Assembly: GCA_963739245.1 (NCBI GenBank)
Contig: CAVTZP010000007.1
Coordinates: forward strand, 26,927-90,926
Direction: 5' to 3'
Length of the DNA stretch: 64,000 nt
DNA from: an uncultured delta proteobacterium
GTDB taxonomy: Bacteria; Chloroflexota; Dehalococcoidia; Dehalococcoidales; BS750m-G39
In this document: piece after piece, positions 1 to 32,821 of the stretch
How the letters are laid out: the number at the start of each line of letters is the position of its first letter
Position numbering within the stretch: the first letter of the stretch is position 1
Position numbers and translations under genes: made by a program
The notes under the pieces: generated by a model
The model's input: only the letters and a program-made list of their open reading frames with translations
Told to the model about the DNA's origin: nothing
Databases searched by the model: none

Positions 1-1689
1 CGGCATCAGGCTGATGGTTCCGGCCATCGGGCAGAGGAACTTGGATCCGGAATAGATTAATATATCGCGAATAGGCAGCGTCCACCCCTTGGGAACACCC
101 TTGAGGGTGGGGTCATGAGTAAGGCTTAGATGTGTCTTGACCATCATGGTAGCATACTCATCATACTTGGGGTCAGCCTCAAAAGCTTTAGCCTTGGCTT
201 CGGCTTCCGGGCTCCAGGACACACCATCAGCCCCGTAGACTACCTTGGCAACCTTATCTACTCTGTCTCTCAGCTTCATTTCATTGGGATAGAGGAACCT
301 GAAGTCATTCTTCTCCTCGCAGGCTTCTTTGACGGCGTCAGCCAGTTCCAGGGCACCAGCGCCGCCGTTAGAATAATGAGATGATGTGGCACAACGAGCT
401 CCCGCTGCCTCGGCTGCCTTGCGAACGATGGCAATCTCTTCCTTGGTATCAGTGGGGAAGCTATTGACACACACCACCGGGTTGATGCCCGAGGCTCTGA
501 TGATATTGATGTGGTGCACCAGATTGATGCAGCCCTTCTCCACTAACTCCGGTGCTGATTTCTTATAGGCTTCAGGCAGAGCTACACCAGCAACTACCTT
601 GGGACCACCGCCGTGCATCTTCAGCGACCGGACAGTGGCGACAAGCACCGACACATTTGGCTTGAGACCACTGTAGCGGCACTTGACGTTCCAGAACTTT
701 TCAAAGCCAATGTCAGCGGCAAAGCCGCTCTCGGTAACATGGTAATCAAACATCTTCAGTCCGAGGCGGTCAGCAATAATTGATGACTGCCCGACGGCGA
801 TGTTGGCAAATGGGCCGGCATGCACCATACAAGGCTGGTATTCTGCAGTACAACAGAGGGTGGGGTTAATGGTGTTGCGCATCCAGGCGGTCATGGCGCC
901 GGCTACCTCCAGGTCTCCCGTAGTAATGGGGTTCCCCTTCTTATCAAAGGCCACCGTGATGTGATTCATTCTTTCCCGCAGGTCAGCCAAATCTCTGACG
1001 ATAGACAGCATCGCCATCAGCTCCGAGCTCACCGCGATGCCAAACTTGGACTGCATCAGAAAGCCGTCCATACGCCCGCCGATGCCAATGATTATATTGC
1101 GGAGACTCTGGGCGCAGAAGTCCATTATCCAGCCCATCTCCACGCGGTTGGGGTCGACATCCAGCCGGCGCATCTTACTAAGCCTGGCTAGCTGGTCATC
1201 ATCATAGTTACGCTCGTGCTGCATCCGGGCAGTAAGGGCTACCATCGCCAGATTGTGGGCATTCATGATATCATTAATATCACCGGTAAGACCCATAGAA
1301 AACTCGGTGTGGGGGATAAGTATGGCGTTGCCGCCGCCGGCGGCGGTGCCCTTGACATTCATCGTGGGACCACCGGAAGGCTGGCGGATGCAGCCGCCAA
1401 CATTCTCCCCCTGCTTGCCCAAACCCTCCATAAGACCCATCGTGGTCGTTGTCTTCCCTTCGCCCAGGGGGGTGGGGGTAACCGCCGTCACCTCAATGTA
1501 CTTACCGTCTGGTTTATTCTTTAGCCTTTCCATAACCTTCAGGAAATCGAGCTTGGCTACCTTCCCATAAGCAAGTACTTCATCCTTTTTTAGACCCAGT
1601 TTCTCCCGCCACTCCTCTGGTGTTGGCATGTGCTCTTCTGCCGCTTCGGCAATCTGCCAATCTGCCATTTTTGACACATCGTAAGCCAT
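1..1689 (-). CDS. fhs: formate--tetrahydrofolate ligase (3' end runs off the window edge)
   Basis: Open minus-strand frame from the ATG at 1689 to position 1, absent from the ORF track because it is truncated. My translation starts [20 protein letters not shown] and contains the FTHFS nucleotide-binding signature [12 protein letters not shown]. Confidence 0.9.
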
Positions 1690-1719: not shown

Positions 1720-2493
1720 TTATGATACCACAGTTGGTAACAAGGCATGGTAGATTTTTCTCACTTCACTGATAACCGGCTGACTGGCATCAAGAACCGG
1801 ACGATGGCTAAGGTCAGCATTAACTATTGCCTGGTCATAGGGGATGAAACCGAGGAATTCAAAACCGGAAAGGCTAGAGGCCAGGAATTCCCTATCTGAT
1901 TGACTCCGGACTTTGTTGGCGACTATTGCGATATTTTGTAAACCAATCTCCCCGGCCAGCTTATTGATTCTATGGGCAGTCTCAACGCTCGTTCTGCCCG
2001 GTTCCACCACTATAATCAGCTTATCCACTGCCTTAGCGGTGGCTCGCCCCAGATGCTCTACCCCAGCCTCCATGTCCAGAATAACCACTTCATTTCGTTC
2101 CAGGAGCAAGTGAGTAATCAGGGCTTGTAGCAAGGCATTTTCCGGGCAATAGCAACCACTACCCCCCTTCTTAATTCGCCCCATCACCATTAGTTTGATG
2201 CCGTTATATTCCCGAAAGTATTTTTCGGGCAAATCATCAACCTTGGGATTTAGCTTAAAAAAGCCCCCGACCTGACCGGCTGGTGCTCCAGTCCGTTCCT
2301 CAATAAGAGCGCGCATCTCAGATATAGGGGTTATCTCATCAGGATGGGGAAAGCCAAGGGTGGCTGCTAGATTAGAATTGGGGTCGGCATCTATCGCTAA
2401 AACGGCGTAGCCAGCCTCAGCAAATGTCCGGGAAAGGAGTGAGGCTAATAGGGTCTTCCCTACCCCGCCCTTACCGCTAATAGCAATCTTCAT
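1720..2493 (-). CDS. cooC: CooC/AcsF-type Ni-insertion accessory ATPase (MinD/ParA fold)
   Basis: 257 aa with the deviant P-loop SGKGGVGKT at the N-terminus and a GSGCYCPEN Cys-x-Cys metal motif. It lies immediately upstream of fhs on the same strand. Confidence 0.75.
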   Translation of the reverse strand: MKIAISGKGGVGKTLLASLLSRTFAEAGYAVLAIDADPNSNLAATLGFPHPDEITPISEMRALIEERTGAPAGQVGGFFKLNPKVDDLPEKYFREYNGIKLMVMGRIKKGGSGCYCPENALLQALITHLLLERNEVVILDMEAGVEHLGRATAKAVDKLIIVVEPGRTSVETAHRINKLAGEIGLQNIAIVANKVRSQSDREFLASSLSGFEFLGFIPYDQAIVNADLSHRPVLDASQPVISEVRKIYHALLPTVVS

Positions 2494-5816: not shown

Positions 5817-6683
5817 TCAAAGATACGGGGCTAATACCCTCATTGGTGATACTATGTTTCGTGACAGCCCCAGGGCGTCAGGCTTGATACCCAGGGCGAC
5901 ACCGACCAGTTGCGTAAGGAAGAGGACGGGAAGGTTATACTTGGTCTTGAACCGGCTGTTGACCTGGCTCTGGTAGGCATCAAGGTTAATCTGACACAAG
6001 GGGCAGGGGGTAACCAGACATTGGGCGCCATTCTCCTGGGCATTGCGCAAAAGTTTATTAATCAGCTCCAAGGCCACCCCTGGCTCAGGCATAACCAGAG
6101 AGCTACCACAGCAACGAGCCTTCAGCTCCCAGGAAACGACATCAGCCCCAAGACTGGCTACCAGCTCATCCAGTGAGTGGGGGGACTCCGGGTCATCGAA
6201 GCCATCGGGACGAACCAACTGACAGCCGTAGTACGACGCTACCCTAAGCCCCTTGAGGGGCTTGGTTACCTTAGCCCTGATCGCCTCAGGGGTAATATCG
6301 TTATATAAGACCTCAGCCAGGTGCCGAACCCGAACTCCTCCCTTATAGTCCAAACCAGCCGCAGCCAGTGCCTCACCTACCTTCTTTTTGAGGATGGGGT
6401 ATTCCTTAAGATGGACATTGGCTCCGTGTAAGACGACAAAACAATTGGAGCACGGGGTTACCAGGTCAAGTCCGGTCTTTTCCGCCAGTACTAGATTTCT
6501 GGCGGCAATGCAGGCCGCCTCCAGCTTATCTACCGAACCGTAGGGGCTGGAGCCGCAGCAATTCCAATCATCAAGCTCAACCAAGTCCATATCCAATTCC
6601 TTGGCAACAGGTAGGACCGAAAGACCTAAGTGTGAAGCTGTAGCCTCAGCTGAGCAACCAGGGAAATAGGAATAACGTTTCAT
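5817..6683 (-). CDS. hdrB: heterodisulfide reductase subunit B-like (two CCG domains)
   Basis: 288 aa with two CCG-domain motifs: NCCGSS...PCSNC and RCCGSS...PCPLC. Confidence 0.85.
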   Translation of the reverse strand: MKRYSYFPGCSAEATASHLGLSVLPVAKELDMDLVELDDWNCCGSSPYGSVDKLEAACIAARNLVLAEKTGLDLVTPCSNCFVVLHGANVHLKEYPILKKKVGEALAAAGLDYKGGVRVRHLAEVLYNDITPEAIRAKVTKPLKGLRVASYYGCQLVRPDGFDDPESPHSLDELVASLGADVVSWELKARCCGSSLVMPEPGVALELINKLLRNAQENGAQCLVTPCPLCQINLDAYQSQVNSRFKTKYNLPVLFLTQLVGVALGIKPDALGLSRNIVSPMRVLAPYL

Positions 6684-7231
6684 TTAGCACCTCCCAGAAC
6701 CCTGGCTTTATTCAGGATAGCCCTAAGTTCGCCTATTCCCTTTATCCGGCTTGGCTTTAGTGGCAGGCGCTGATGCAAAAGTAACCCCAGCCCGACCGGT
6801 GCTAGCTTAAGGGCGGCAAAGGGATTGGTTTTAAGGAAGAGCTTGAGCATCATGCCGAGCTCATATACCCGCCCATTGCCCTTAGCTGAGTCAACAAAGC
6901 ATTGATACATCACCGGTGTCCGGCTTAGCCTGGTGCTCAAGCCATTCTTGATAGCTAGGACTTCCAGGGCATGCATAATATCCGTAGGCTTAATGTCCCG
7001 CGGGCAACGCACGGTGCAGGCATAACAAGAAGCACAGAACCACATGGAATTGCTGGATAATAACTCGTCCCTCAGCCCAGCCCGCACCATAGCAATAGTC
7101 TGCCGCGGTGCGTAGTCCCATTTGGTAGCAGTAGGACAGGAGCCGGTGCACATACCGCACTGAATACAGGAACGAATAGCCTCGCCACCGGGGACGGAAC
7201 ACACCTCATCAATAAAGCTCATCTCAGCCAT
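6680..7231 (-). CDS. hdrC: heterodisulfide reductase subunit C-like (2x[4Fe-4S])
   Basis: 183 aa with CIQCGMCTGSCP and CASCYACTVRCP motifs. Translationally coupled to hdrB by a 4-nt overlap. Confidence 0.8.
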   Translation of the reverse strand: MAEMSFIDEVCSVPGGEAIRSCIQCGMCTGSCPTATKWDYAPRQTIAMVRAGLRDELLSSNSMWFCASCYACTVRCPRDIKPTDIMHALEVLAIKNGLSTRLSRTPVMYQCFVDSAKGNGRVYELGMMLKLFLKTNPFAALKLAPVGLGLLLHQRLPLKPSRIKGIGELRAILNKARVLGGAK

Positions 7232-7246
7232 TTAGATTCCTCCTTC

Positions 7247-10200
7247 TTATACCAAAACCCCCTCTATCTCAGCCATTAATTCCCGGGTAGTAAAGTGCCT
7301 GCCAGCAATGGCGCCGCTGGGACAGGCAGCTACGCACACACCACAGCCCTTGCATAGCGTCTCGTTAACCCGGCTGACCCTCTTTTCCTCATCAAAGGAA
7401 ATGGCATGGAACGGACAGAGAGCACTACATGTCTTGCATCCGGAGCAGAACTCCTCGTCAACCACGGCCGTAGTCGCCTCAATCTCTATTTCGCCGGCAG
7501 TGATGGTAGCCAAAGCCCGGGCGGCAGCCGCTGAAGCCTGAACCACACTCTGCGGAATATCCTTGGGCGACTGACAGCAGCCGACGACGAAAATGCCATC
7601 GCTCATTGTTGCCACCGGGTCAAGCTTGGGGTGCTTCTCCAGGAAGAAACCATCGGCACTTCGACTGAGTGAAAACAGCCTAGCCATCTCATCGGCATCT
7701 GCCCTCGGTTGGAGAGCCGTGCTCAATACTACCATATCAACCGGGACACGGCGCTGGCGACCGATGAGGGTGTCCTCAACGACTATAATAAGCTTGCCCT
7801 GCTCCTCGGGACTCTCGGTGATATTGGTTACCTCCGCCGGGCGGCCACGGACAAATATTGTCCCTTCATCAAGAACGCGGTTATAGAACTCCTCAAAGGC
7901 TTTACCCACGCATCGGAGGTCAATATAGAATTCGTAGACCTGGGCTCCGGGGACATGCTCTCTTATCAGGTGACCAAACTTCATTGAGTACATGCAGCAC
8001 ACCTGCGAGCAATACTCATGATACTTCTTATCCCGGCTACCCACGCAGTGGATAACACCCACCGTCTTGGGATGGGAGCCATCCTTCAGCTTAACCTCGC
8101 CGCTGGTTGGTCCCGAGGCATTAATCAGCCGCTCAAACTCAAAGGCGGTGATGACATTATCAAGACGTCCATAGCCATAATAGTAGAGCGGAGTCGGGTC
8201 AAAGGCATCGTAGCCAGTAGCTAGGATTATGTTACCAACCTCCACCTCCACTAGCTCCTCCCTCATCTCCTGATTGATTGCCCCGGCTTGGCATATCTTA
8301 ACGCACTCCATGCACTCAGAACACACACCACAATTCAAGCAACGCTTGGCTTCGTCAATAGCCGTCTTTTCATCAAAGCCGAGCTCAACCTCGGCAAATC
8401 CCTCCCGCCTCTTAGGGTCAAGCGTTGGCATAGTATGCCTTGCCCTGGCTACTACCCCCTGCTTTGACACCTCTTTCACCCTGGTGATAGGGGCTGGTCT
8501 CCCCGCTTTCAGGTCAACCCCCCTGAGGTGGCGGTCTATTGAGATGGCGGCTTCCTTGCCCGCAGCAATGGCGGCAATGACATCGTCAGGACCGGAAACT
8601 ACATCGCCACCGGCAAAAACACCCTCAATGTTTGTCTGCAGGGTTACCTGGTCAACAGCCAGAGTCCCCCACCCGGTGTATTCAAGCTCCTTGGGCAGCG
8701 CTGCCTTATCCATCGCCTGCCCGATGGCGACAATTACACTATCAACATCCATATTGAATTCCGAGCCCTTAATCGGCATCGGGCGCCGACGGCCACTGGC
8801 ATCAGGTTCCCCCAGCTCCATCCGAATACACTGGATGCCAGTTACCCGCTCATCCTTAGCTAGAACCCTGACCGGCGCGGTCAGGAGGTGGAGATTTATT
8901 CCCTCACGCTCCACCTCATCCATCTCAGTGGAAACAGCGGGCATCTCAGCTCGGGAGCGCCGATAGACAAGAGAAACCTCTTTTGCCCCAAGGCGATGGG
9001 CTACCCTAGCGGCGTCTACCGCCGCATTGCCCCCGCCGATAACCACCACCCTCTCCCCAAGGTCAACCTTAATCCCCAAGCTAACCTGCTTTAGAAAATC
9101 CAGGGCATGGATTACACCCTTGGCGTCTTCATTAGGTATCCCCATCTTCAAACTTTCCCCGGCACCGCTAGCCAGGAATATGGCTTCATAGCCCTGACTG
9201 AAGATATCCTCAAGGTTCTTCATCGGGGCATTGGTCTTTATCTCCACCCCCAGCTCTTCAATATAGCTAATTTCATTAGCCACTACCTTCTTTGGCAGCC
9301 TGTGTTCAGGGATACCGTAGCGCAGAAGACCACCGCTTGCCGGGGCAGCCTCAAAGACGGTAACCGGATATCCTTGCCGTATCAGGTCGTAGGCGCAGGC
9401 CAATCCCGCTGGACCAGAGCCAATAATCGCTACCCTATCTTCCTTCGTCCGTTCAATCGGGGTTGCCTTCTTCCTCCCCACCTTCAGCTCGTAATCAGCC
9501 ATGAAACGCTTTAGAGCGCGGATGGAAACCGGCTCATCAACCTTCCCCCGCTCACACTCCAGCTCACAGGGGTGAGTGCAGACACGCCCGCAGACGCCGG
9601 CAAAGGGCATAGTTCGCCGCAGCACCTCAAGGGCTTCCTTAAACTTACCCTGAGAGATAAGGGCGACATACCCCTGGGCATTTACCCCGGCCGGACAGGC
9701 AGAGCGGCACGGTGGGTAGCCCCGCTTATCAACAGTAAAGGCATTGGGCACCGCCTGAGGGAAGGGCCTATAGATTGCCTTCCTCTGCCCCAGCCCAAGG
9801 TCAAACTCGTTGGGTACCGTAACGGGGCAGGAATTAGCACACTCACCACAGCCGGTGCACTTATCAATATCTACATATCTAGCCTTCTTTTTTATCTTAA
9901 CCTTGAAGTTGCCAACATACCCTGAGACATCAACCACCTGGCTATAGGACATTAGCTCAACATATGGGTGAGCCCCAGCCAGACTCATCTTAGGGGTAAG
10001 AATGCAAGCCGAGCAGTCAAGGGTGGGGAAGGTCTTATCCAGTTGCGCCATATGCCCCCCAATGCTGGGCGTTCTCTCCACCAGGTAGACCTTATGCCTG
10101 GAATCAGCAATCTCCAGTGCCGCCTGAATGCCGGCAATGCCCCCTCCCACCACCAGGGTATTGGGGTTGACCGGGACTCTCTTGGGCTCCAGGGGCTCCT

Positions 10201-10588
10201 GATAGGCAACACGCCTTATCGCGGCGCTAACCAGAGCCTTGGCTTTCTCGGTGGCAGCAGCACGGTCTTCGGTTATCCACGAGCAATGCTCCCTGATATT
10301 AGCCATCTCAAAGAGGTAGGGGTTTAATCCTGATTCCTGGCAGACCCGGCGGTAGGTTCGCTCATGCAGCGTTGGGGAACAGGAAGCTACCACCACCCGA
10401 TTAATCCCCAGCTCCTTAATATCCTGTCGGATAAGCTCCTGCCCTGGGTCAGAACACATATACATATAGCGGCGAGCAATAGCTACAAAAGGCAATTCCC
10501 GGGCAAATTCAGTAACCGCTTCCACATCCACCGTGCCCGCGATATTGGTCCCACAATGACAGACATAAACACCGATTTTGGGCTCCAC
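7247..10588 (-). CDS. hdrA: HdrA-like flavoprotein with a nested GltD/NfnB-like NAD(P)H-binding module
   Basis: 1113 aa, GTG start preceded by GGAGGA. It has an HdrA N-terminal Cys domain (VYVCHCGTNIAG), the FAD motif VVGGGIAGIQAA, and a C-terminal 2x[4Fe-4S] domain. Residues ~288-690 are a complete glutamate-synthase-small-subunit-like module (GRVCTHPCELEC, IIGSGPAGLACAY, VIGGGNAAVDAA, FAGGDVV). Confidence 0.85.
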   Translation of the reverse strand: MEPKIGVYVCHCGTNIAGTVDVEAVTEFARELPFVAIARRYMYMCSDPGQELIRQDIKELGINRVVVASCSPTLHERTYRRVCQESGLNPYLFEMANIREHCSWITEDRAAATEKAKALVSAAIRRVAYQEPLEPKRVPVNPNTLVVGGGIAGIQAALEIADSRHKVYLVERTPSIGGHMAQLDKTFPTLDCSACILTPKMSLAGAHPYVELMSYSQVVDVSGYVGNFKVKIKKKARYVDIDKCTGCGECANSCPVTVPNEFDLGLGQRKAIYRPFPQAVPNAFTVDKRGYPPCRSACPAGVNAQGYVALISQGKFKEALEVLRRTMPFAGVCGRVCTHPCELECERGKVDEPVSIRALKRFMADYELKVGRKKATPIERTKEDRVAIIGSGPAGLACAYDLIRQGYPVTVFEAAPASGGLLRYGIPEHRLPKKVVANEISYIEELGVEIKTNAPMKNLEDIFSQGYEAIFLASGAGESLKMGIPNEDAKGVIHALDFLKQVSLGIKVDLGERVVVIGGGNAAVDAARVAHRLGAKEVSLVYRRSRAEMPAVSTEMDEVEREGINLHLLTAPVRVLAKDERVTGIQCIRMELGEPDASGRRRPMPIKGSEFNMDVDSVIVAIGQAMDKAALPKELEYTGWGTLAVDQVTLQTNIEGVFAGGDVVSGPDDVIAAIAAGKEAAISIDRHLRGVDLKAGRPAPITRVKEVSKQGVVARARHTMPTLDPKRREGFAEVELGFDEKTAIDEAKRCLNCGVCSECMECVKICQAGAINQEMREELVEVEVGNIILATGYDAFDPTPLYYYGYGRLDNVITAFEFERLINASGPTSGEVKLKDGSHPKTVGVIHCVGSRDKKYHEYCSQVCCMYSMKFGHLIREHVPGAQVYEFYIDLRCVGKAFEEFYNRVLDEGTIFVRGRPAEVTNITESPEEQGKLIIVVEDTLIGRQRRVPVDMVVLSTALQPRADADEMARLFSLSRSADGFFLEKHPKLDPVATMSDGIFVVGCCQSPKDIPQSVVQASAAAARALATITAGEIEIEATTAVVDEEFCSGCKTCSALCPFHAISFDEEKRVSRVNETLCKGCGVCVAACPSGAIAGRHFTTRELMAEIEGVLV

Positions 10589-10646
10589 TTTGTCCTCCTA
10601 TGTCCGGCGCAGAATATACCAAAGGGTCTAGTTATTAAACCAAATT

Positions 10647-10675
10647 ATCTTAGCATAGGCGAATAGCAGGGTCAA
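10647..10675 (-). promoter_or_regulatory. candidate sigma-70 promoter for hdrACB
   Basis: Minus strand reads TTGACC, 17 nt, TAAGAT. It lies about 60 nt upstream of the hdrA GTG. Confidence 0.5.
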
Positions 10676-10736: not shown

Positions 10737-10758
10737 TTTTATACAGGTTAGGCAGCCA

Positions 10759-11817
10759 ATGGAGCAAAAGCAGTCCCCGCAGATGAGGCAGGAGCTAAGG
10801 CAAGTCCTCAGAATGGAGCAGGCAACCCTGCTGGAGATGCCTGAGGAGGAGTTCCAAAAGCTCATTGTCGAGATAGAGAGAAATCCCATCTTTCAAAGGC
10901 TGTACCAGAGGGAGGAGGTAATCCGCCGCCAGAGATTCCCCAGGACTGATATTTCCTCCAACTTCTATCAAATTAAACCGGAGCTAGTAGCTGATATCGG
11001 CTCACTTGATGTCGAATCTCTTCTGCTCAACAAGAAGCACATTGCCCATCAGATACAGAAACTGGGAATAGAAAAATTCAAGCGGTATTTCCTATTTCCT
11101 GAATCAGGGATGAGCGCAGAAGAAATCGCCGGGGAATGCAACCTGGCTGTTTCCGAGATGCAAAAGATTAATCGCCTCATTGATGAGTTCTCCATCTTGA
11201 GCGAGTTCTATCACCCTTCAGCTCTCAGCTCTGGAGGGGTGTATTATAGCAAGATTGCCTCAGTGGAGAAGAACCGGGAGGGCTTTATCATTGGCTACTT
11301 TTCACCCTCCCTCGCCCGGGGGAGGTATTCCATTGATTATGAAAGGTTTGAGCAATTAAAGGATACCCTAACCGCGGTTGAGATTAAGCAAATCAGGCAG
11401 TTATTAAAGAAGGTGGAGCTCGTCAATACCCGCAAGGATACCCTAACCCAGATACTGCAAGCCGTTGTTGAACGCCAAGCACTTTATCTGGAGTCTGGCG
11501 ATTTGAAGGCGCTCCTACCCTTCAACCAGAAGGAACTGGCCAGAAAGATCGGGCTTGCCCCCAGTTCAGTAAGTCGCGCCATCAGGGGCAAAAGCATTGA
11601 CACGCCGTGGGGTGAAGAAGTCCCGCTTAAGCACTTTTTCCCCAGACCGAAGAGTTTTAAGAAGGAGCTTTTAAGACAGCTTCTTGAAGCCGACAGGGAG
11701 CTTCCCTCCGATGAGGCAATCAAGGCAAGGCTACAGGATAAATTCGGTGTTGCTATCTCCCGGCGCTCGGTAGCCAACCTGAGGAAGGAACTAAAAATCT
11801 CACCAAGAAGGAGCTGA
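10759..11817 (+). CDS. rpoN: short sigma-54 (RpoN) family protein
   Basis: 352 aa. The N-terminus is region-I-like (LRQVLRMEQATLLEMPEEEFQKLIVEIERNPIF). The C-terminus has the sigma-54 DNA-binding HTH (SSVSRAIRGKSIDTPWGEEVPLKHFF) and an RpoN-box-like ISRRSVANLRKEL. Confidence 0.75.
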   Translation: MEQKQSPQMRQELRQVLRMEQATLLEMPEEEFQKLIVEIERNPIFQRLYQREEVIRRQRFPRTDISSNFYQIKPELVADIGSLDVESLLLNKKHIAHQIQKLGIEKFKRYFLFPESGMSAEEIAGECNLAVSEMQKINRLIDEFSILSEFYHPSALSSGGVYYSKIASVEKNREGFIIGYFSPSLARGRYSIDYERFEQLKDTLTAVEIKQIRQLLKKVELVNTRKDTLTQILQAVVERQALYLESGDLKALLPFNQKELARKIGLAPSSVSRAIRGKSIDTPWGEEVPLKHFFPRPKSFKKELLRQLLEADRELPSDEAIKARLQDKFGVAISRRSVANLRKELKISPRRS

Positions 11818-11818
11818 A

Positions 11819-13759
11819 ATGAGCATAGTTTATACTGACCGAGAAAAATGTAAGGGGTGCTATGCCTGCATCCGCATTTGTCCATGTAAGGCAATCAAGG
11901 TGGAGGAGGGCTTGGCCCAGGTGATAAAGGAACGCTGTATCGCCTGTGGCACCTGCCTTCAGGTCTGCGCTCCAAAGGCAAAGCAGGTGGAGAGCGACAT
12001 CGGGACAGTCTGGCAATTACTGACACAATATCCTAATGTAATCGCCGTCCTCTCCTCATCATTCCCCGCCGCCCTGCTCAAATGCAGCGCCGGACAGCTG
12101 GTAGCTGCCCTGAAAAAACTAGGGTTTAGCGAGGTTATGGAAGACTCCTTCGGTGCTGAGCTTGTTGCCAGGGAATATGCCCGGCTCATAAGTAAAGACA
12201 AAGGTAAGCCCCTTCTCTCCTCTAACTGCTCGGCAGTGGTAACCTACATTGAGAAATATCATCCTCAGCTAGTTGGCAACCTGGCGCCCATTGTTTCGCC
12301 AATGATTGCCACGGGCAGGATAATCAAATCGCAGTATAATCCCCAGGCTAAGGTAGTCTTCATTGGTCCCTGCGTAGCCAAGAAGGCAGAGAGCCGGGAT
12401 GAGAAAGTGGCCGGAGCCGTAGACGCCGTCCTGACCTTTGCCGAGCTGAAGGAGATGTTTGCCGCCAAAGGGGTTACCCCTGAAACCGAGGGAAGGGAAC
12501 CATTCTCCGGTCCCACACCCGGCATTGGTCGTCTCTTCCCATTGTCAAAAGGGCTATTCAGGGTGGCTAGACTACCCGAAGATATTGTTAAAAATGACAC
12601 GATAAACGCCCATGGGAAAGACTACGTGATTAGAATCCTTCGGGAATTCGCTGAGGGAGAAATCACCGCCAGACTTATTAACCTACATTTCTGCCATGGC
12701 TGCATTGATGGACCGGTTATTGATAATGAGCTGAGCGGCTTCAGGCGGAAGGAGCTTGTCGCCAGCTATGCTCGCAGCGAGATGAACCCGGACCAAACCG
12801 AGAAGGATATCAAGGAGTACTCCGGCACTGACCTTAAGCGCAAGTTTACCGCCCGAGGTGTGGGACTGGCAACGCCGAGTGAGGAAGAGGTCCAAAGCAT
12901 CTTAAAGAAGATTGGCAAGGAAGAGCCAAACCAGATAGACTGCGGCGCCTGCGGGTATAGCACCTGTCGGGAGCTGGCAATCTCTGTTTGCCAGGGCTTA
13001 GCTGAGGTTGAGATGTGCTGGCCATATGTGCTTCAGACGTTAAGGTCTACCCAAGAAGGCCTGATCCAAGCCGAGAAGCTGACCTCTTTGGGTCAGCTGG
13101 CAGCCTCCGTTGCCCACGAGATTAACAATCCTCTGGCCGGTGTCCTCGTCTATACCCAGTTACTAGCCAAGAAGATAAATAGCGACACATTCAGCAAAGA
13201 AAGTGCCACCGAATATCTGTCAAAGATGGAGACTGAGCTCATCCGCAGCAGCCGGCTAATCCGAAACCTTCTGGACTTTGCCCGGCAATCACCACCGAGG
13301 TTCTGGGAGGTGGACATTAACGAGGTCATTAACCGAAGTTTTGAACTTGCGGCTCACTCTGCACAACTACAGCACGTTCAGGTATTAAAAGAGCTTGACC
13401 CGGCACTGCCAAGGATTTCAGCTGATTTTGACCAGCTTCAGCAGGTTTGCACCAACCTTATTATGAATGCCATTCAGGCAATGCCAAATGGAGGTACGCT
13501 GACCATACGCACCTCGGCTGATAACACTCAGGTCAAGATAGAGGTTCAGGACACTGGTGTTGGCATTTCTCCGGAGAACATGCGCAAGCTGTTTACCCCC
13601 TTCTTCACCACCAAGCGGGAGGTGAAAGGGGTGGGGCTGGGCCTGGCGGTGTCCTATGGAATTGTCCAGCGACATCGGGGAAGGATTGAAGTGCAAAGTA
13701 AAGAGGGAGAGGGTACCACCTTTAACGTCTATTTACCACGGCACCATGAAGAAAGCTAA
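11819..13759 (+). CDS. soluble [FeFe]-hydrogenase-like sensor histidine kinase
   Basis: 646 aa, no TM segments. In order: 2x[4Fe-4S] ferredoxin motifs (CKGCYACIRICP, CIACGTCLQVCAP); H-cluster-domain-like motifs SSNCSA, GPCVAKKAE and FCHGCIDGP; a 4-Cys motif DCGACGYSTCRELAISVC; then HisKA (SVAHEINNPL) and HATPase_c (DTGVGI, GVGLGLAV). Confidence 0.8.
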   Translation: MSIVYTDREKCKGCYACIRICPCKAIKVEEGLAQVIKERCIACGTCLQVCAPKAKQVESDIGTVWQLLTQYPNVIAVLSSSFPAALLKCSAGQLVAALKKLGFSEVMEDSFGAELVAREYARLISKDKGKPLLSSNCSAVVTYIEKYHPQLVGNLAPIVSPMIATGRIIKSQYNPQAKVVFIGPCVAKKAESRDEKVAGAVDAVLTFAELKEMFAAKGVTPETEGREPFSGPTPGIGRLFPLSKGLFRVARLPEDIVKNDTINAHGKDYVIRILREFAEGEITARLINLHFCHGCIDGPVIDNELSGFRRKELVASYARSEMNPDQTEKDIKEYSGTDLKRKFTARGVGLATPSEEEVQSILKKIGKEEPNQIDCGACGYSTCRELAISVCQGLAEVEMCWPYVLQTLRSTQEGLIQAEKLTSLGQLAASVAHEINNPLAGVLVYTQLLAKKINSDTFSKESATEYLSKMETELIRSSRLIRNLLDFARQSPPRFWEVDINEVINRSFELAAHSAQLQHVQVLKELDPALPRISADFDQLQQVCTNLIMNAIQAMPNGGTLTIRTSADNTQVKIEVQDTGVGISPENMRKLFTPFFTTKREVKGVGLGLAVSYGIVQRHRGRIEVQSKEGEGTTFNVYLPRHHEES

Positions 13760-15107
13760 GGTTCTCGTTGTTGATGATGAAGCCATTATCCGCCAGTCAC
13801 TTCATGACTGGCTAAGCGACGCCGGTTACAAGGTGCTCACTGCGGAAAATGGACCAAAAGCCCTGGAGACTATTCAAAGGGAAGGTCCGAGGATTGTTAT
13901 TACTGATTTAGTCATGCCGGGGATGGATGGAATCGAGCTAATGAAGCGAGCCAAGGAGATATCCCCTGACATTGAAGTTATCGTCATTACCGCTTATGGA
14001 AGCATCCCTACCGCTATCAGCGCAATGAGAGAAGGAGCCTATGACTATATTGAGAAGCCATTCTGCCCAGAAAGGACTGAAATATTGATTGAAAAACTGG
14101 TGGAGCACCAAGGACTAATTGAGGAAAACCTTTCCCTGCACCAGAAATTGGAAGAGCGTTACCGATTTGAAAATATCATCGCCAAGAGTCCCAGAATGCA
14201 ACAGGTGATTGAGGTAATTAAGGTTGTAGCTAAGAGCAATGCTACTGTACTAATTACCGGCGAGACCGGCACCGGGAAGGAGCTGGTAGCACGGGCTATC
14301 CACTCCCAGAGCTACCGTTGTGGCAAGCCCTTTATTGCTGTCAGTTGTGCCGCCCTGCCTGAGACTCTCCTTGAGAGCGAGCTATTCGGTCATGAGAAGG
14401 GAGCTTTTACCGGGGCTTATGCTCAAAAGAAAGGGAAGTTTGAAATCGCCAGCCGGGGAACCCTGTTTCTAGACGAAATTGGCGAGATGAGCACTAATAT
14501 CCAGGTTCACCTGCTGAGGGTCCTGGAGGAGAAGGAATTCACCAGGGTTGGGGGCAATGAGCCAATTAAGGTTGACGTGCGGGTTATTTCCGCCACCAAT
14601 AGAGCCACGAAGGAGGCAATAGCCGAGGGGCGATTTCGGGAAGACCTCTATTATCGGTTAAACGTGGTCAACATTGAATTGCCTCCGTTAAGAGAGAGGA
14701 AGGAAGACATTCCCCTTTTAGCTCAGCATTTTTTGAAGGAGTTCGCCCTGGAGAATAATAAAGAAGTTAGCGGGTTTTCCTCCGAGGCTACCGATTTTCT
14801 ATTGAGATACGATTGGCCGGGTAATGTCAGGGAACTGGAAAATGCTATTGAACGAGCAGTCATACTTGCCCAAAAACCCCTAATTGAGCTTGATGACTTG
14901 CCTCAACAAACCTTGGTAGCCCCCTCAATCTCAGCGGAGAAAAACCTTAGGCAGGTGGAGAAAAACCATATTTTGAATGTCCTGGCTCAGACCAAGGGGA
15001 ATTATACCGAGGCAGCCAGAGTCCTGGGCATCTCAAGAATGACCCTCTATAATAAAGCCAGGGCATACGGAATAAATGTAAAGAAAGTAGACAAAGCCGA
15101 TAGTTAA
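13746..15107 (+). CDS. sigma-54-dependent response regulator (NtrC family bEBP: REC-AAA+-Fis HTH)
   Basis: Preferred start is MKKAKVLVVDDE at 13746, a 14-nt overlap with the kinase; the track start at 13656 is less likely. It has a receiver Asp (ITDLVMPG), Walker A GETGTGKE, the sigma-54 contact loop GAFTGA, and a C-terminal HTH (AARVLGISRMTLYNK). Confidence 0.9.
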   Translation: MKKAKVLVVDDEAIIRQSLHDWLSDAGYKVLTAENGPKALETIQREGPRIVITDLVMPGMDGIELMKRAKEISPDIEVIVITAYGSIPTAISAMREGAYDYIEKPFCPERTEILIEKLVEHQGLIEENLSLHQKLEERYRFENIIAKSPRMQQVIEVIKVVAKSNATVLITGETGTGKELVARAIHSQSYRCGKPFIAVSCAALPETLLESELFGHEKGAFTGAYAQKKGKFEIASRGTLFLDEIGEMSTNIQVHLLRVLEEKEFTRVGGNEPIKVDVRVISATNRATKEAIAEGRFREDLYYRLNVVNIELPPLRERKEDIPLLAQHFLKEFALENNKEVSGFSSEATDFLLRYDWPGNVRELENAIERAVILAQKPLIELDDLPQQTLVAPSISAEKNLRQVEKNHILNVLAQTKGNYTEAARVLGISRMTLYNKARAYGINVKKVDKADS

Positions 15108-15142
15108 GCCTTCAGCTTAAAATAGAGACGAGGCTATTGTTT

Positions 15143-15158
15143 TGGCAAGAAAATTGCA
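15143..15158 (+). promoter_or_regulatory. sigma-54 (-24/-12) promoter
   Basis: TGGCAA-GAAAA-TTGCA compared with the consensus TGGCAC-N5-TTGCW: exact spacing and one mismatch. It lies 53 nt upstream of the ATG at 15211, in the only sizeable intergenic gap of the locus. Confidence 0.75.
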
Positions 15159-15210
15159 TCTACTAAAAGTGGGAATAGGAATAGAAAGGCGGGTAACTGG
15201 AGGTAAATAG

Positions 15211-16206
15211 ATGAAACCAATACTGGTAGTAGAAGATGAAAGCATTGTGAGAGAGTCGCTCCGAGACTGGCTTACCGACGAAGGCTATCCGGTAGAGACA
15301 GTGGAGCACGGTGAAGAGGCGTTAAAGGTAATCGGGGAGCAGGACTTCAGCCTCCTCATCCTTGACATGAGGCTGCCGGGGAAAAGCGGGCTTGAGGTAC
15401 TAAGGGAAGCCAAGGCACAAAGACCAAAAATCAACAGTATCATCATTACCGCCTACCCGTCAGTAGAGACCGTAGTGGAGGCAATGAAGTTAGGCGCCGT
15501 TGACTATCTAACCAAGCCGCTTAGCCTTGACACCCTGGAAAAGCTGATTCAGCAGACCCTGGGACCAGTTCAACTGGAGATAAAGCCAAAGGCGGCACTC
15601 AAAGAAGCTACAGTTCAGCCTGCAGAAAAGGCAAAGGTTGAAGAAATCATAGCTATTGCCCCGGAGGAAATCCCGCTTCACATTAAACAGGGAAAGGAAT
15701 ACTTTGACACCGGTCGCTACGCTGAGGCGCTAAGGGAATTTGAGTCTATCCTCGCTATTGCCCCGGCCAACATTGAGACCCGGGTCTGGATTAGAAAGAC
15801 AAAGCAAACCCTGGCCGAGCCAAGGATTGAGGGAGTTGTTGTTGTAGAGGCCAAGCCCAAGGAGTGCCTCTGGATGAAGATGGGGCTGGTGTCTTATCGC
15901 ATCTGCACCCGGGATTATGACTGTCTCACCTGCGAGTTTGACCAGACGATGCAGGAGAAAATGGCGGCGGGGGAAACCCCCGAGCTTGACAAGGCATTGG
16001 CGCGATTCAGGGAGCTGCCAGGTAGTCAGCGGCTTTGCCGCTATGCCATCAAGGGCGATGTCTCCCACCGTATCTGCTCTCGCCTCTTCCAGTGCACCGT
16101 CTGCGAGTTCGGGCAGATGATGGAGGACGCCACCCAGCAAAAGCTAGCCAAGCTACAAGCACGACGGGAGGCGCTACTCAAAAAGGAGCAAAAAGCTAAA
16201 GCCTAA
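15211..16206 (+). CDS. response-regulator receiver protein with a TPR-like linker and duplicated Cys-rich C-terminal module
   Basis: 331 aa. REC domain (LVVEDESIVRESLRDWLTDEGY, LILDMRLPG), a TPR-like segment (GRYAEALREFESILAIAPAN), then VSYRICTRDYDCLTCEF ... LPGSQRLCRYA ... VSHRICSRLFQCTVCEF. Confidence 0.7.
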   Translation: MKPILVVEDESIVRESLRDWLTDEGYPVETVEHGEEALKVIGEQDFSLLILDMRLPGKSGLEVLREAKAQRPKINSIIITAYPSVETVVEAMKLGAVDYLTKPLSLDTLEKLIQQTLGPVQLEIKPKAALKEATVQPAEKAKVEEIIAIAPEEIPLHIKQGKEYFDTGRYAEALREFESILAIAPANIETRVWIRKTKQTLAEPRIEGVVVVEAKPKECLWMKMGLVSYRICTRDYDCLTCEFDQTMQEKMAAGETPELDKALARFRELPGSQRLCRYAIKGDVSHRICSRLFQCTVCEFGQMMEDATQQKLAKLQARREALLKKEQKAKA

Positions 16207-30617: not shown

Positions 30618-31352
30618 CTAATCTCGGCAGTCAGGGCAGTTATCAAATGCGCTGGGGGCTAAGTTTACCTTTTTAATTATATAGTCTAGCTGTTTTTCTG
30701 GAGCCCAGAACTTGCCACAGGTTTTACACTTCTTTAGCTTGAACTCCATACCATTGCTTGGCCACTGAATGCGTCTTGTATCACCCACATCCTCAAACCC
30801 TATCGCTGCGGTAGGGCAGACATAGGCACAAGAACCACAGCCGATGCAGACATCCGAAGGCTGGTAAAAGGGGGTAGCCATCTCCCGACCAGTACCCCGC
30901 CCCACCAGGCTGATTGCTGAGACACCGACAACCTCCTGACATACCCGAACGCATAGAGCGCATAAAATGCAGTGATTATCCTCAAGCTTAAAGCCTGTCC
31001 CATCAACACCGAGCTTATGAGCCAAATCCTGCACTGCTTTATTATTAGGACACCGGGCGAGCAGTAGCTCCATAAGCATTCTACGGTTGCTGGCGATTCT
31101 CTCCGAGCTGGTCTTTACCTGAAGCCCTTCTTCCGCCTCATAAAGGCAAGATGCTACCAGTCTTTCCCTCTTACCCTTGGTAATCTCAACCAGACACAGG
31201 CGGCAGGCACCATAGGGTTTAACCGCCTCGCTAAAACATAAAGTCGGTATATAAATATTGTTATCTTGAGCCACCTCCAGTATGGTTGCTCCCTCTTTTG
31301 CTTGAACCTGTCGGCCATCAATCGTCAGTGTAATCATTTCTCCCGCCTTCAT
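30618..31352 (-). CDS. NuoG/HndD N-terminal-type Fe-S protein ([2Fe-2S] + [4Fe-4S] clusters) lacking any catalytic domain
   Basis: 244 aa. It has 2Fe-2S motif CRLCLVEI, then a bacterial-ferredoxin 2x[4Fe-4S] domain ([23 protein letters not shown]), and a C-terminal CKTCG...CPDC ribbon-like motif. Confidence 0.7.
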
Positions 31353-32821
31353 TTCCTTATCACCGCATCAAGCTTGCAGACGTCGTAGCAAGAGCCGCAC
31401 TTTATGCACTTCTTCTGGTCCAAGACCACCGGCTTCTTCTTCCCCATAAAGGTTATTGCCTCCACCGGGCAGGCTTTGACACACTGCCCGCAACCGGGGC
31501 ATTTCGCCTCATCAATGAGATAGGTGACCAGCTCCTTGCAGACGCCGGCGGGGCATCGCTTATCTTTAATGTGGGCTTCATACTCGTCCCTAAAATAGCG
31601 TAGCGTGGTTAATACCGGATTAGGCGCGGTGCTGCCCAAGGCACACAGCGAACTATCAATAAGCGTGGCCGACAGCCGCTCCAGTAAGCCAATATCGCCG
31701 TCTTTACCTTTACCCTGAGTGATGTCAGTTAATATCTGGCCCATCCTTTTTAATCCCTCGCGGCAGGGAACACACTTGCCACATGACTCACCCTCAAGGA
31801 AACTAACAAAGTATTTGGCGATATCCACCATACAGGTATCCTCATCCATAACAATCATCCCACCCGACCCCATCATCGAGCCAGCCTTGGTAAGCTGGTC
31901 AAAGTCTACCGGCAGGTTAAGCATACCCTCGGGGATACAACCGCCGGAGGGGCCACCAGTCTGCACCGCCTTGAACTTCCTCCCCTCGGGAATACCACCG
32001 CCAATATCGTAGATAATCTCCCTCAAGCTTATCCCCATCGGGACTTCCACCAGACCAGTGTTATTTATCTTACCCACCAGTGAGAAAATCTTGGTTCCTT
32101 TGCTGCCATCAGTGCCTATCTTTGAATACCAGCCAGCCCCTCGGTTGATTATCAGCGGGACATTGGCCCAGGTCTCCACATTGTTAAGATTAGTCGGCTT
32201 ATCCCATAAGCCCTTCTCCGAGGTGTGGACATACTTTGCCCGGGGCTCACCCACCTCACCTTCCAGCGAAGCCATCAGTGCCGTTGACTCCCCGCAGACA
32301 AAAGCCCCCCCTCCCCTACTTATCTTGATGCTGAAGTCAAACCCAGAACCCAGGATGTTCTTCCCCAGAAGCCCATACTCCTCAGCCTGTTTAATAGCTA
32401 TCTGGGCATTTCTTACTGCCAATGGGTATTCATTGCGAATATAGATATAGCCTTCGTGACCTCCAATAGCATAGGCACCAATTATCATCCCCTCCAGAAC
32501 ACTATGGGGATTACCCTCCATAAGGCTTCTGTCCATAAAGGCACCAGGGTCTCCCTCGTCACAATTGCAGATGATGTACTTGGTGTCGCCATATGCCCGG
32601 CGGCAGGTTTCCCACTTGGCGCCGGTGGGGAATCCCCCACCACCCCGACCCCGCAAGCCCGATTTCTTGACCTCCTCAATTATTCCCTCTGGCGGCATCT
32701 TAAAAAGGGCTTTACTCAAGGCGGCATAGCCACCCAGAGCCAGGTAGTCCTCAATTACGGTGGGGTCAATATTGCTATTGTCGCCAAGGAGAAGGCGCTT
32801 CTGTTTTTTATAGAATGGCAC
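31349..32821 (-). CDS. NuoF/HndC-like NAD(P)H-binding FMN Fe-S flavoprotein
   Basis: 490 aa with [23 protein letters not shown] and the SLBB/[4Fe-4S] region [12 protein letters not shown]. It carries an extra C-terminal 2x[4Fe-4S] ferredoxin domain. Confidence 0.85.

Follow-up and report, generated by a model that had tools for sequence, protein, structure and literature searches.

An HdrA with a nested, circularly permuted NfnB/StnC-type cassette as a candidate NADPH entry point into a three-subunit HdrABC

Four kinds of flavin-based electron-bifurcating machinery are known, HdrABC modules among them, and how these are coupled to pyridine nucleotides outside the methanogens is for the most part conjectural. 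Here we analyze a 64,000-nucleotide stretch of contig CAVTZP010000007.1 (assembly GCA_963739245.1, positions 26,927 to 90,926; Dehalococcoidales in GTDB), hereafter the window, which carries an hdrA-hdrC-hdrB operon whose heterodisulfide reductase subunit A, here called HdrA*, contains a cassette of the GltD/NfnB/StnC type nested within its inserted ferredoxin domain. On balance we favor the reading that HdrA* is a 'type III' or HdrL-like HdrA that joins a bifurcation-type core to a self-contained GltD/StnC-type cassette, through which NADPH would enter HdrABC in a reaction that may be coupled to ferredoxin. That HdrA*BC is an NAD(P)H-linked heterodisulfide reductase (Hdr) we consider very likely; that it carries out ferredoxin-coupled bifurcation is a tentative claim, which we are slightly more inclined to doubt than to accept.

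HdrA* is encoded by one unbroken frame of 1113 codons that begins with a GTG at position 10588, five nucleotides downstream of a Shine-Dalgarno sequence (AGGAGG, 10599..10594), so that the length of 1113 aa given in a first-pass annotation, made from the nucleotide sequence alone, was correct. We searched the protein against all PDB sequences using phmmer, and the top matches were the HdrA subunits of methanogen Mvh-Hdr complexes (8RVU, 5ODC, 9SFI, and 7BKB; E-values down to 5e-232). Every one of these HdrA matches was split in two, with residues 2-288/289 of the query aligned to residues 3-291 of 5ODC_A (417 bits) and residues 756-1111 to residues 293-649 (361 bits). Therefore, the inserted ferredoxin domain of HdrA is interrupted between two consecutive residues by some 467 others, after the cluster motif C244TGC247GEC250ANSC254P and directly before C756SEC759MEC762VKIC766. 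Inside HdrA*, Pfam places Fer4_20 at residues 292-369 (E-value 2.6e-21, 76 bits) and Pyr_redox_2 at residues 385-677 (E-value 1e-44, 154 bits), both with scores exceeding the Pfam cut-offs, and FAD (flavin adenine dinucleotide)-binding and ferredoxin families flank them on both sides. The split match to 5ODC, the Pfam domains, and the PDB matches of the insert itself all bear out the first-pass proposal that a full GltD/NfnB-type module is nested between two cluster motifs of this domain. The rest of the protein has the layout of HdrA in 5ODC, namely an N-terminal domain, an FAD domain resembling thioredoxin reductase (TrxR), an inserted 2x[4Fe-4S] domain, and a C-terminal 2x[4Fe-4S] domain, all with their cysteine ligands, which are invariant in the alignment of homologs. 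Also strictly conserved are E819 and K870, the equivalents of E356 and K409 of M. thermolithotrophicus HdrA, two residues at the flavin that have been used as markers of bifurcating HdrA (PMC9430772, PMC12054007).

When residues 286-760 were searched alone against the PDB, the matches were 9N5U_A, labeled 'NfnA' (E-value 6.5e-129), 9BOV_A, StnC (8OH5_C, E-value 6e-106), and NfnB of T. maritima (4YLF_B, E-value 7e-95), and further ones included P. furiosus NfnI-L (5JCA_L), GltD, and dihydropyrimidine dehydrogenase. The NCBIfam model PRK12771 also recognized the cassette, with 542 bits against a cut-off of 516. The alignment to NfnB (4YLF_B) falls into two swapped segments, in which residues 8-405 of this shorter query correspond to NfnB 46-461 and residues 440-469 to NfnB 14-43, and we conclude that the cassette is circularly permuted relative to NfnB and GltD. 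Particularly, a segment of the form RR.F.EV..G....A..EA.RCLxC, which in NfnB and GltD is N-terminal and stands right before PCxxxCP, ends the cassette here, at residues 725-753; the order of segments is the same in StnC, 9BOV, and 9N5U. This shifts the borders of the module as first annotated (residues 288-690, 8519..9727): the nested unit stands, while its end at residue 690 does not, the true span being residues 289-755 (8324..9724). For the same reason the string CLNCGVCSECMECVKIC, which had been taken whole as an HdrA motif, has to be divided, since only C756, C759, C762, and C766 form the HdrA ferredoxin motif and C750 and C753 are ligands of the cassette.

Seven cysteines of the cassette are conserved (C294, C298, C337, C341, C345, C750, and C753), and these, together with the run RCLxC-x2-C-x2-C-x2-C-x3-C, are invariant both across relatives at 39-59% identity and across 80 homologous loci; the glycine motifs of the cassette are likewise invariant across those relatives. 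C333 was rejected as a cluster ligand because it varies among homologs (C, L, or T). As the non-cysteine ligand we initially considered E342, which was dropped in favor of K360 after mapping onto K170 of StnC and the corresponding Glu of NfnB: the position reads 'LKRF' in HdrA*, 'LKSF' in StnC, and 'LERF' in the bifurcating NfnB, and 75 of the 80 loci have a Lys there. By homology to dihydropyrimidine dehydrogenase and NfnB, we take the proximal cluster to be held by C298, C337, C341, and K360 and the distal one by C294, C345, C750, and C753. The first residues of the cassette (PPC294xxxC298P) and the last ones (RC750xxC753) would thus bring together ligands that are contiguous in NfnB. Moreover, only three residues separate C753 from C756, with which the ligands of the next HdrA cluster begin, and this closeness within an invariant C-x2-C-x2-C-x2-C-x2-C-x3-C run implies that the distal cluster of the cassette and the next HdrA cluster must be neighbors. 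Both glycine motifs, GSGPAG for FAD and GGGNAA for NAD(P)H, proved intact as first annotated, and the latter aligns to that of NfnB and StnC. The Arg that touches the flavin N5 in NfnB is kept as R430, and it is also conserved in StnC.

The dinucleotide site divides the family. Among the loci in which this site could be aligned (cassette position 541-548, L002-L081), about four-fifths have YRR(S/T), as does HdrA*, and about 15 have an acidic C(L/I)E, including Desulfotruncus arcticus and members of the Gemmatimonadota, Planctomycetota, and Actinomycetota. We read YRR as an NADPH signature and CLE as an NADH signature, by analogy, including that with glutamate synthase sequences, and the split suggests NADPH-type and NADH-type subfamilies. 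If the analogy holds, HdrA* is likely to prefer NADPH over NADH.

Downstream of hdrA*, hdrC starts after 15 nucleotides and the start of hdrB overlaps the hdrC stop; with both CCG motifs present in HdrB, the HdrABC set recognized at first sight is complete. To describe the gene context of the family we used the 80 homologous loci, on which the neighbor counts below rest. Single-linkage clustering of the neighboring open reading frames (ORFs) was too noisy, owing to ferredoxin domains and antisense ORFs, and was replaced by greedy gene calls and clustering at 70% coverage, and hidden Markov models (HMMs) were then built for the neighbor families. Those for MvhD/FlpD, MetF, MetV, a PyrK-like (FlxA-like) protein, and two Fe-S families were confirmed with Pfam; the MvhA and MvhG models carry names that we assigned from our own reading of the sequences. 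In the 64-kb window, the HMMs of MvhD, MetF, MetV, MvhA, MvhG, and the PyrK-like (NfnA/FlxA-like) protein found no match, and the two FlxB/C-like Fe-S models gave just weak ones (E-values about 1e-4) to hdrC and other ferredoxin-type ORFs, in agreement with the earlier statement that neither MvhADG nor FlxABCD is adjacent. No GltB was seen among those of the window ORFs that were scanned with Pfam.

Across the family, 33 of the 80 loci have MvhD at most four genes from the nested hdrA, with 26 of 36 copies lying directly downstream. An adjacent HdrC occurs in 25 loci, and so does an adjacent HdrB; roughly a dozen loci have MetF or MetV neighbors, and about 10 have MvhA/G. A FlxDCBA-like set (MvhD, two Fe-S proteins, and a PyrK-like protein) recurs beside nested hdrA in L003, L008, L028, L069, and L083, the last of which belongs to the same clade as the window and has this set in addition. 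The bare hdrA*-hdrC-hdrB form is a minority arrangement, common to the window, the syntenic contig L001, a Bathyarchaeota locus (L006), and L027. As it does without MvhD, Flx, and Mvh, an NAD(P)H-linked Hdr much simpler than this is hard to imagine, and it would hence be a convenient target for enzymology and cryo-electron microscopy. Another locus of the window's own clade, L082 (hdrA* 77% identical), has the order hdrC-hdrB-hdrA* followed by a response-regulator-cassette fusion. This protein of 743 aa, encoded directly after hdrA* (10362..12593 of L082, plus strand), consists of a response-regulator receiver, a Fer4_20/Pyr_redox_2 cassette, and a ferredoxin domain, a combination suggestive of an NAD(P)H Fe-S flavoprotein under phospho-regulation.

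We propose the following path for the electrons. NADPH would reduce the FAD of the cassette, which would be non-bifurcating, as in StnC. Electrons would then travel singly via the proximal (Lys360-type) and distal clusters of the cassette to the pair of clusters in HdrA's inserted ferredoxin domain and then to the HdrA FAD; from there they would reach HdrC, the two non-cubane clusters of HdrB, and finally a disulfide or another high-potential acceptor. The second, low-potential electron would go to a ferredoxin or flavodoxin docking at the surface cluster that is left vacant when no MvhD is encoded, so that the net, reversible reaction would be 2 NADPH + Fd(ox) + R-S-S-R' -> 2 NADP+ + Fd(red) + 2 thiols. 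There is a precedent for such a division of labor in StnC, whose cassette takes in electrons from NADPH without bifurcating them and hands them to another flavin, which does bifurcate (PMC10482914). The first-pass suggestion of an NAD(P)H-dependent and possibly bifurcating HdrABC, to which the cassette would supply the electron donor in cis, is plausible, and the same has been proposed elsewhere for this architecture (PMC2702500, PMC9012536, PMC12054007).

Several observations weigh against this path. HdrA*, HdrB, and HdrC miss the NCBIfam equivalog cut-offs for CoB-CoM HdrABC (610 vs 1400 bits for NF041778, 233 vs 345 for TIGR03288, and 92 vs 160 for TIGR03290), so that by this criterion the substrate is not the heterodisulfide of coenzymes M and B (CoM-S-S-CoB). 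We know of no biochemistry for any nested HdrA with a single TrxR domain (class a). An AlphaFold2 model based on a 43-sequence alignment was too poor for geometry, with a mean predicted local distance difference test score (pLDDT) of 60, a predicted template modeling score (pTM) of 0.38, and all Fe-S regions below a pLDDT of 50. In most relatives MvhD, Flx-like, MetFV, or Mvh genes adjoin the nested hdrA, and a donor in cis that dispenses with partners is therefore no general rule for the family; in the genome analyzed here, genes for partners may lie outside the window. The arm that bears the cassette is the one by which, in methanogens, low-potential electrons leave for ferredoxin, a point also made in PMC12054007, which means that the direction and the potentials must differ from those of the canonical enzyme and that the ferredoxin site would lie elsewhere. 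Specificity for NADPH, too, is proposed by analogy between motifs, and the 2025 paper on the archaeal type III proteins argues for NADH, reading their GxGxxG as a preference for NAD+ (PMC12054007). HdrA* does not have the GxGxxG reported for these archaeal proteins, carrying GGGNAA (GxGxxA) and YRRSR instead. The type III locus L006 has GGGNVG yet YRRS, and as a motif the latter sits awkwardly with the published NADH assignment.

If ferredoxin had no part at all, HdrA*BC would be a simple, non-bifurcating oxidoreductase of NADPH and a disulfide (or another HdrB substrate), in which electrons run downhill from the cassette through HdrA and HdrC to HdrB. Passing electrons from NADPH (-320 mV) to a disulfide is in itself exergonic, the HMMs found no ferredoxin-docking partner and no MvhD nearby, the cassette occupies what in the canonical HdrA is the ferredoxin exit (the argument of PMC12054007), and non-bifurcating homologs of HdrA do exist (PMC9430772). 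Nevertheless, the bifurcating-flavin markers E819 and K870 are strictly conserved, and HdrA* keeps the full set of HdrA clusters, including those of the N-terminal and C-terminal ferredoxin domains, for which a linear wire would have no need. We judge such an enzyme unlikely.

Another possibility is that HdrA*BC serves as the NAD(P)H-oxidizing core of a larger complex and that the gene for the catalytic partner lies elsewhere. The likeliest partner would then be the one known from Moorella, a methylene-tetrahydrofolate reductase of the MetFV type, which belongs to the Wood-Ljungdahl pathway. The window starts with fhs and a gene for a CooC-like ATPase, which puts the hdr operon about 5 kb from Wood-Ljungdahl genes, and in L001 (87% identical over the contig, with an HdrA* 92% identical) the same order hdrA*-hdrC-hdrB-DUF1648-glyS is followed by fhs, cooC, folD, and cdhD. 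Within the clade, L084 (73% identical) combines hdrC-hdrB-hdrA* with NuoG/E/F-like genes, MetV, and MetF, and to this the roughly one dozen loci with MetF or MetV neighbors can be added. The MetFV-HdrABC-MvhD complex of Moorella itself contains a GltD-interrupted HdrA (PMC9430772, PMC5861303). However, neither MetF, MetV, nor MvhD was detected in the 64-kb window, the Moorella-type HdrA is a two-TrxR form of 1475-1500 aa and not the 1113-aa form found here, and the disulfide-reducing motifs of HdrB are intact in our operon. We therefore consider a MetFV partnership quite unlikely.

The identity of the cluster ligand bears on whether one polypeptide could hold two bifurcating flavins, the FAD of the cassette acting like the b-FAD of NfnB in addition to the HdrA FAD, as was suggested for HdrA9-11 of ANME-1 archaea (PMC9012536). 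About 45% similarity to NfnB and the retention of the flavin-N5 Arg as R430 speak for it. The same Arg, however, is kept in StnC, whose FAD has been shown to be non-bifurcating (PMC10482914), and it is with StnC that the Lys360 signature, in place of the NfnB Glu, groups the cassette. Since no NfnA-like high-potential partner was found in the window either, double bifurcation is highly improbable, and we retain a single bifurcating site, at the HdrA FAD, for the proposed path.

The nested form is widespread. In a word-indexed search, assemblies from JGI, ENA, NCBI, and Logan yielded at least 120 clusters of proteins of about 1113 aa that are 72-92% identical to HdrA* at 100% query coverage, the named examples being metagenome-assembled genomes (MAGs) of Dehalococcoidia and Dehalococcoidales. 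Of the best 150 matches in a protein library clustered at 50% identity, 81 bore the cassette, and 55 of these counted as nested in an automated flank test of a simple kind. Two forms recur: a compact one of about 1110-1140 aa, which aligns with query residues 2-1112 in one stretch, and a long one of about 1475-1530 aa, which is continuous over query residues 144-1030. We also surveyed the junction itself, starting from 521 tblastn-positive candidates and requiring the alignment of query residues 228-350 at full length, and recovered it in the genomes of at least 80 GTDB species from many phyla, most of them bacterial. These include Dehalococcoidia, Anaerolineae, Bacillota (among them the cultured Desulfotruncus arcticus DSM 17038), Syntrophales/Smithella, Desulfobacterales, Acidobacteriota, Planctomycetota, Actinomycetota, Thermotogae, Atribacteria, and Gemmatimonadota, and among archaea Bathyarchaeota, Hadarchaeota, and Hodarchaeota. 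With HdrA resuming in the same frame past the insert, at least 120 independent full-length clusters, and the junction in at least 80 species, the chance that a missed stop, a frameshift, or an assembly error has joined an hdrA to a gltD-like gene, a concern raised in the first-pass annotation, is practically negligible.

The nesting, whose novelty the first-pass annotation had implied, is therefore common among anaerobes, both bacterial and archaeal, and it is already published for HdrL (2009), for Moorella HdrA, for HdrA9-11 of ANME-1 (2022), and as 'type III HdrA' (2025). HdrL of Desulfobacterium autotrophicum, with its NADH site, was described in 2009 as a 'heterodisulfide reductase/glutamate synthase fusion' (PMC2702500) and has been detected in Syntrophobacter proteomes (PMC5947623), and the 1487-aa HdrA of the MetFV-HdrABC-MvhD complex of Moorella thermoacetica has a TrxR-like domain 'interrupted by a ... 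GltD domain' (PMC9430772). Representatives of this long form (HdrL of D. autotrophicum and Syntrophobacter fumaroxidans, and Moorella HdrA) carry the same cassette at the same place and are proposed to oxidize NAD(P)H (PMC2702500, PMC5947623). For Moorella this has been shown with an artificial dye, the purified complex being reported to reduce benzyl viologen with NADH (PMC5861303, PMC9430772). They differ from HdrA* in their length of about 1480-1500 aa, in a second HdrA-like half, in the mvhD and Fe-S protein genes that normally follow, and, in some, in a selenocysteine; the window protein is compact, with 1113 aa and a single TrxR domain, and no FlpD/mvhD accompanies it in the window.

Closer in form is the type III HdrA of ANME-1 and Bathyarchaeota (classes A9/A10; HdrA9-11 of Chadwick et al., 2022), which has a GltD/NfnB-like insert of about 470-500 aa at the same site, a single TrxR domain, and conserved E356 and K409 (PMC12054007, PMC9012536); for the insert of the ANME-1 HdrA9-11, 45% identity to NfnB is given (PMC9012536). 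The Bathyarchaeota locus L006 (mvhG, an hdrA* of 1138 aa, hdrC, hdrB) is 68% identical to ours over the junction. In contrast, the window is bacterial, its nearest named relatives being Dehalococcoidia/Dehalococcoidales MAGs, its protein has GGGNAA and not GxGxxG, and there are no mvhADG genes or extra hdrA paralogs adjacent in the window. The type III design is treated in the papers as rare (9 sequences) and archaeal, whereas our survey finds it widespread in bacteria, with a cassette that is StnC-like (Lys, non-bifurcating) and not NfnB-like. StnC of the Sporomusa ovata StnABC (8OH5; PMC10482914), 9BOV_A, and 9N5U_A have the same bounds (PPCxxxCP ... RCLxCG), the proximal Lys, and the YRR(T/S) site, and cassette query residues 6-470 align with residues 101-567 of 8OH5_C. 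The cassette of StnC, too, lies inside an Fe-S protein that hosts it and delivers electrons to a bifurcating flavin other than its own; its host, however, is NuoG/FdhF-like, and the bifurcating flavin is the flavin mononucleotide of StnB and not the HdrA FAD. With NfnB (4YLF_B, 5JCA_L) and GltD the cassette shares the Fer4_20 + Pyr_redox_2 fold, two [4Fe-4S] clusters, the FAD, and the NADPH site, and it departs from them in the permutation (RCLxC at the C-terminus), in the Lys replacing the Glu ligand, and in that no NfnA was found in the window and no GltB among the ORFs scanned. Finally, the FlxABCD-HdrABC of Desulfovibrio has likewise been proposed to perform an NAD(P)H-dependent, ferredoxin-coupled disulfide reduction (Ramos et al., 2015, cited in PMC5861303); its NADH site is on a separate FlxA, linked via FlxBCD, whereas here the site is fused into HdrA and flxABCD is not adjacent. 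These findings change no current concept but fill in a known picture, with HdrA* as a solid but ordinary case of an enzyme class that is known but has received little biochemical study.

The cassette itself may be mobile. In a library of representatives at 50% identity, we found cassettes 61-67% identical to that of the window, bounded by PPCxxxCP ... RCLxC, in four other hosts: in a RACo, or reductive activator of corrinoid proteins, between the middle and ASKHA domains (P0225), in a DHODH-like protein, where it is joined to a DHO_dh domain (P0191), fused to an HdrD-like protein with ferredoxin and CCG domains (P0235), and between an HdrA N-terminal domain and a C-terminal ferredoxin domain in place of the TrxR flavin domain (P0146). 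They cluster with the cassette of the window in a neighbor-joining tree without support values, which we use as a hint that a portable module was recently shuffled. These hosts, together with the nested StnC cassette in its NuoG-like host, speak for the first part of a further reading, which as a whole we find doubtful: that the cassette is a permuted, portable 'NADPH-to-Fe-S plug' transplanted repeatedly and recently, and that in this lineage HdrA*BC is a minimal, self-sufficient three-subunit bifurcating disulfide reductase driven by NADPH, with ferredoxin at the vacant MvhD site. In such a plug the outermost cluster would be held by both termini together, which would permit insertion in a loop of any Fe-S protein. 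The interest of the system would rise if biochemistry showed the three-subunit enzyme to be a self-sufficient bifurcating system of this kind. The features of the operon and its surroundings are collected in Table 1.

Table 1. Features of the hdrA* operon and neighboring genes (positions in the 64,000-nt window)
Feature	Position	Strand	Basis
hdrA* coding sequence, 1113 aa, HdrA with nested GltD/NfnB-type cassette	7247..10588	-	single ORF, split match to HdrA structures, Pfam, homologs
HdrA N-terminal domain, residues 1-140, with VCHCG, CSP, and HCSW cysteine motifs	10169..10588	-	gapless alignment to 5ODC_A 3-141
Inserted ferredoxin domain, first cluster motif CTGCGECANSCP (C244, C247, C250, C254)	9824..9859	-	5ODC alignment; invariant among homologs
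Nested GltD/NfnB/StnC-type cassette, 467 aa, residues 289-755	8324..9724	-	gap of HdrA alignment; matches 9n5u, 9bov, 8oh5_C, 4ylf_B, 5jca_L
Cassette Fe-S ligands PPC294RSAC298P, C337, C341, C345, and K360	9509..9715	-	alignments and conservation
Cassette FAD Rossmann motif GSGPAG, residues 390-395	9404..9421	-	Pfam, alignment
Cassette putative NADP(H) site, GGGNAA (518-523) and YRRSR (542-546)	8951..9037	-	aligned to NADPH-binding NfnB (4ylf_B, 5jca_L) and StnC (8oh5_C)
RCLNC, R749-C753, cassette cluster ligands and permutation point	8330..8344	-	query 440-469 aligned to 4ylf_B 14-43; invariant
Inserted ferredoxin domain, second cluster motif C756SEC759MEC762VKIC766	8291..8323	-	aligned to 5ODC_A C293...C303
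HdrA flavin-site markers E819 (FEFER) and K870 (CCMYSMK)	7979..8143	-	mapped from 5ODC alignment
HdrA C-terminal 2x[4Fe-4S] ferredoxin domain, C1048 to C1089	7289..7471	-	Pfam Fer4 families; 5ODC alignment
hdrC, 183 aa, 2 x CxxCxxCxxxCP	6680..7231	-	Pfam Fer4_8, NCBIfam CoB_CoM_SS_C
hdrB, 288 aa, both CCG motifs complete	5817..6683	-	Pfam CCG, E 1.3e-25; TIGR03288, E 5e-69
DUF1648 membrane protein, packed tightly after hdrB, kept in L001	5324..5815	-	Pfam, synteny
Candidate sigma70-like promoter TTGACC-17-TAAGAT with TG (10675..10647), and AGGAGG	10594..10675	-	consensus match; count in region not above chance
fhs (formate-tetrahydrofolate ligase), 563 aa; window begins inside gene	1..1689	-	92% identical to L001 fhs
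CooC-like ATPase beside fhs	1720..2493	-	ORF scan, L001 synteny

The DUF1648 gene is followed by glyS in the window as well. Farther from the operon, a NuoF-like protein of 490 aa (Complex1_51K + NADH_4Fe-4S + Fer4) with a downstream ORF of 244 aa (30618..32821, minus strand) and a formate-dehydrogenase-like molybdopterin oxidoreductase of 681 aa (48374..50419, minus strand) are encoded, for neither of which a link to the hdr operon was established. Upstream of hdrA* lie regulatory genes. Control of hdrA* through sigma54 by the neighboring sensor kinase and activator was considered and rejected, as the 170-bp upstream region contains no match to the -24/-12 consensus; over the whole window such matches are not above chance (74 observed vs 62 expected).

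Two segments of the window, 10747..11808 and about 14152..15196, are absent from L001. The first coincides with a compact sigma54-like gene (10759..11817, 352 aa), absent from L001, whose product has a Gln-rich N-terminus, an RpoN-box-like SRRSVANLR, and Sigma54_DBD as the only domain detected. In the activator gene 13656..15107 it is the AAA+ sigma54-interaction part that L001 lacks, the regulator there being a 194-aa protein with Response_reg and HTH_8. As both segments are missing together, the sigma factor and the ATPase domain of the activator appear to have been gained or lost together. The sequence TGGCAAGAAAATTGC (15143..15157, plus strand), one mismatch from the -24/-12 sigma54 consensus, lies 54 nucleotides before a response-regulator/TPR gene (15211..16206) and is the sole intergenic match of this kind near the sigma54 genes, in a window whose sigma54 matches overall do not exceed chance. 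The histidine kinase gene (11819..13759, plus strand) adjoins hdrA* in L001 too, and is divergent from hdrA. Its product of 646 aa starts with a [FeFe]-hydrogenase-like sensor (Fer4 + Fe_hyd_lg_C + PF04060 FeS), followed by HisKA and HATPase_c; the H-cluster-like motifs are partly retained (SSNCS, GPCVAKK, and FCHGC), and the kinase may act as a redox or H2 sensor.

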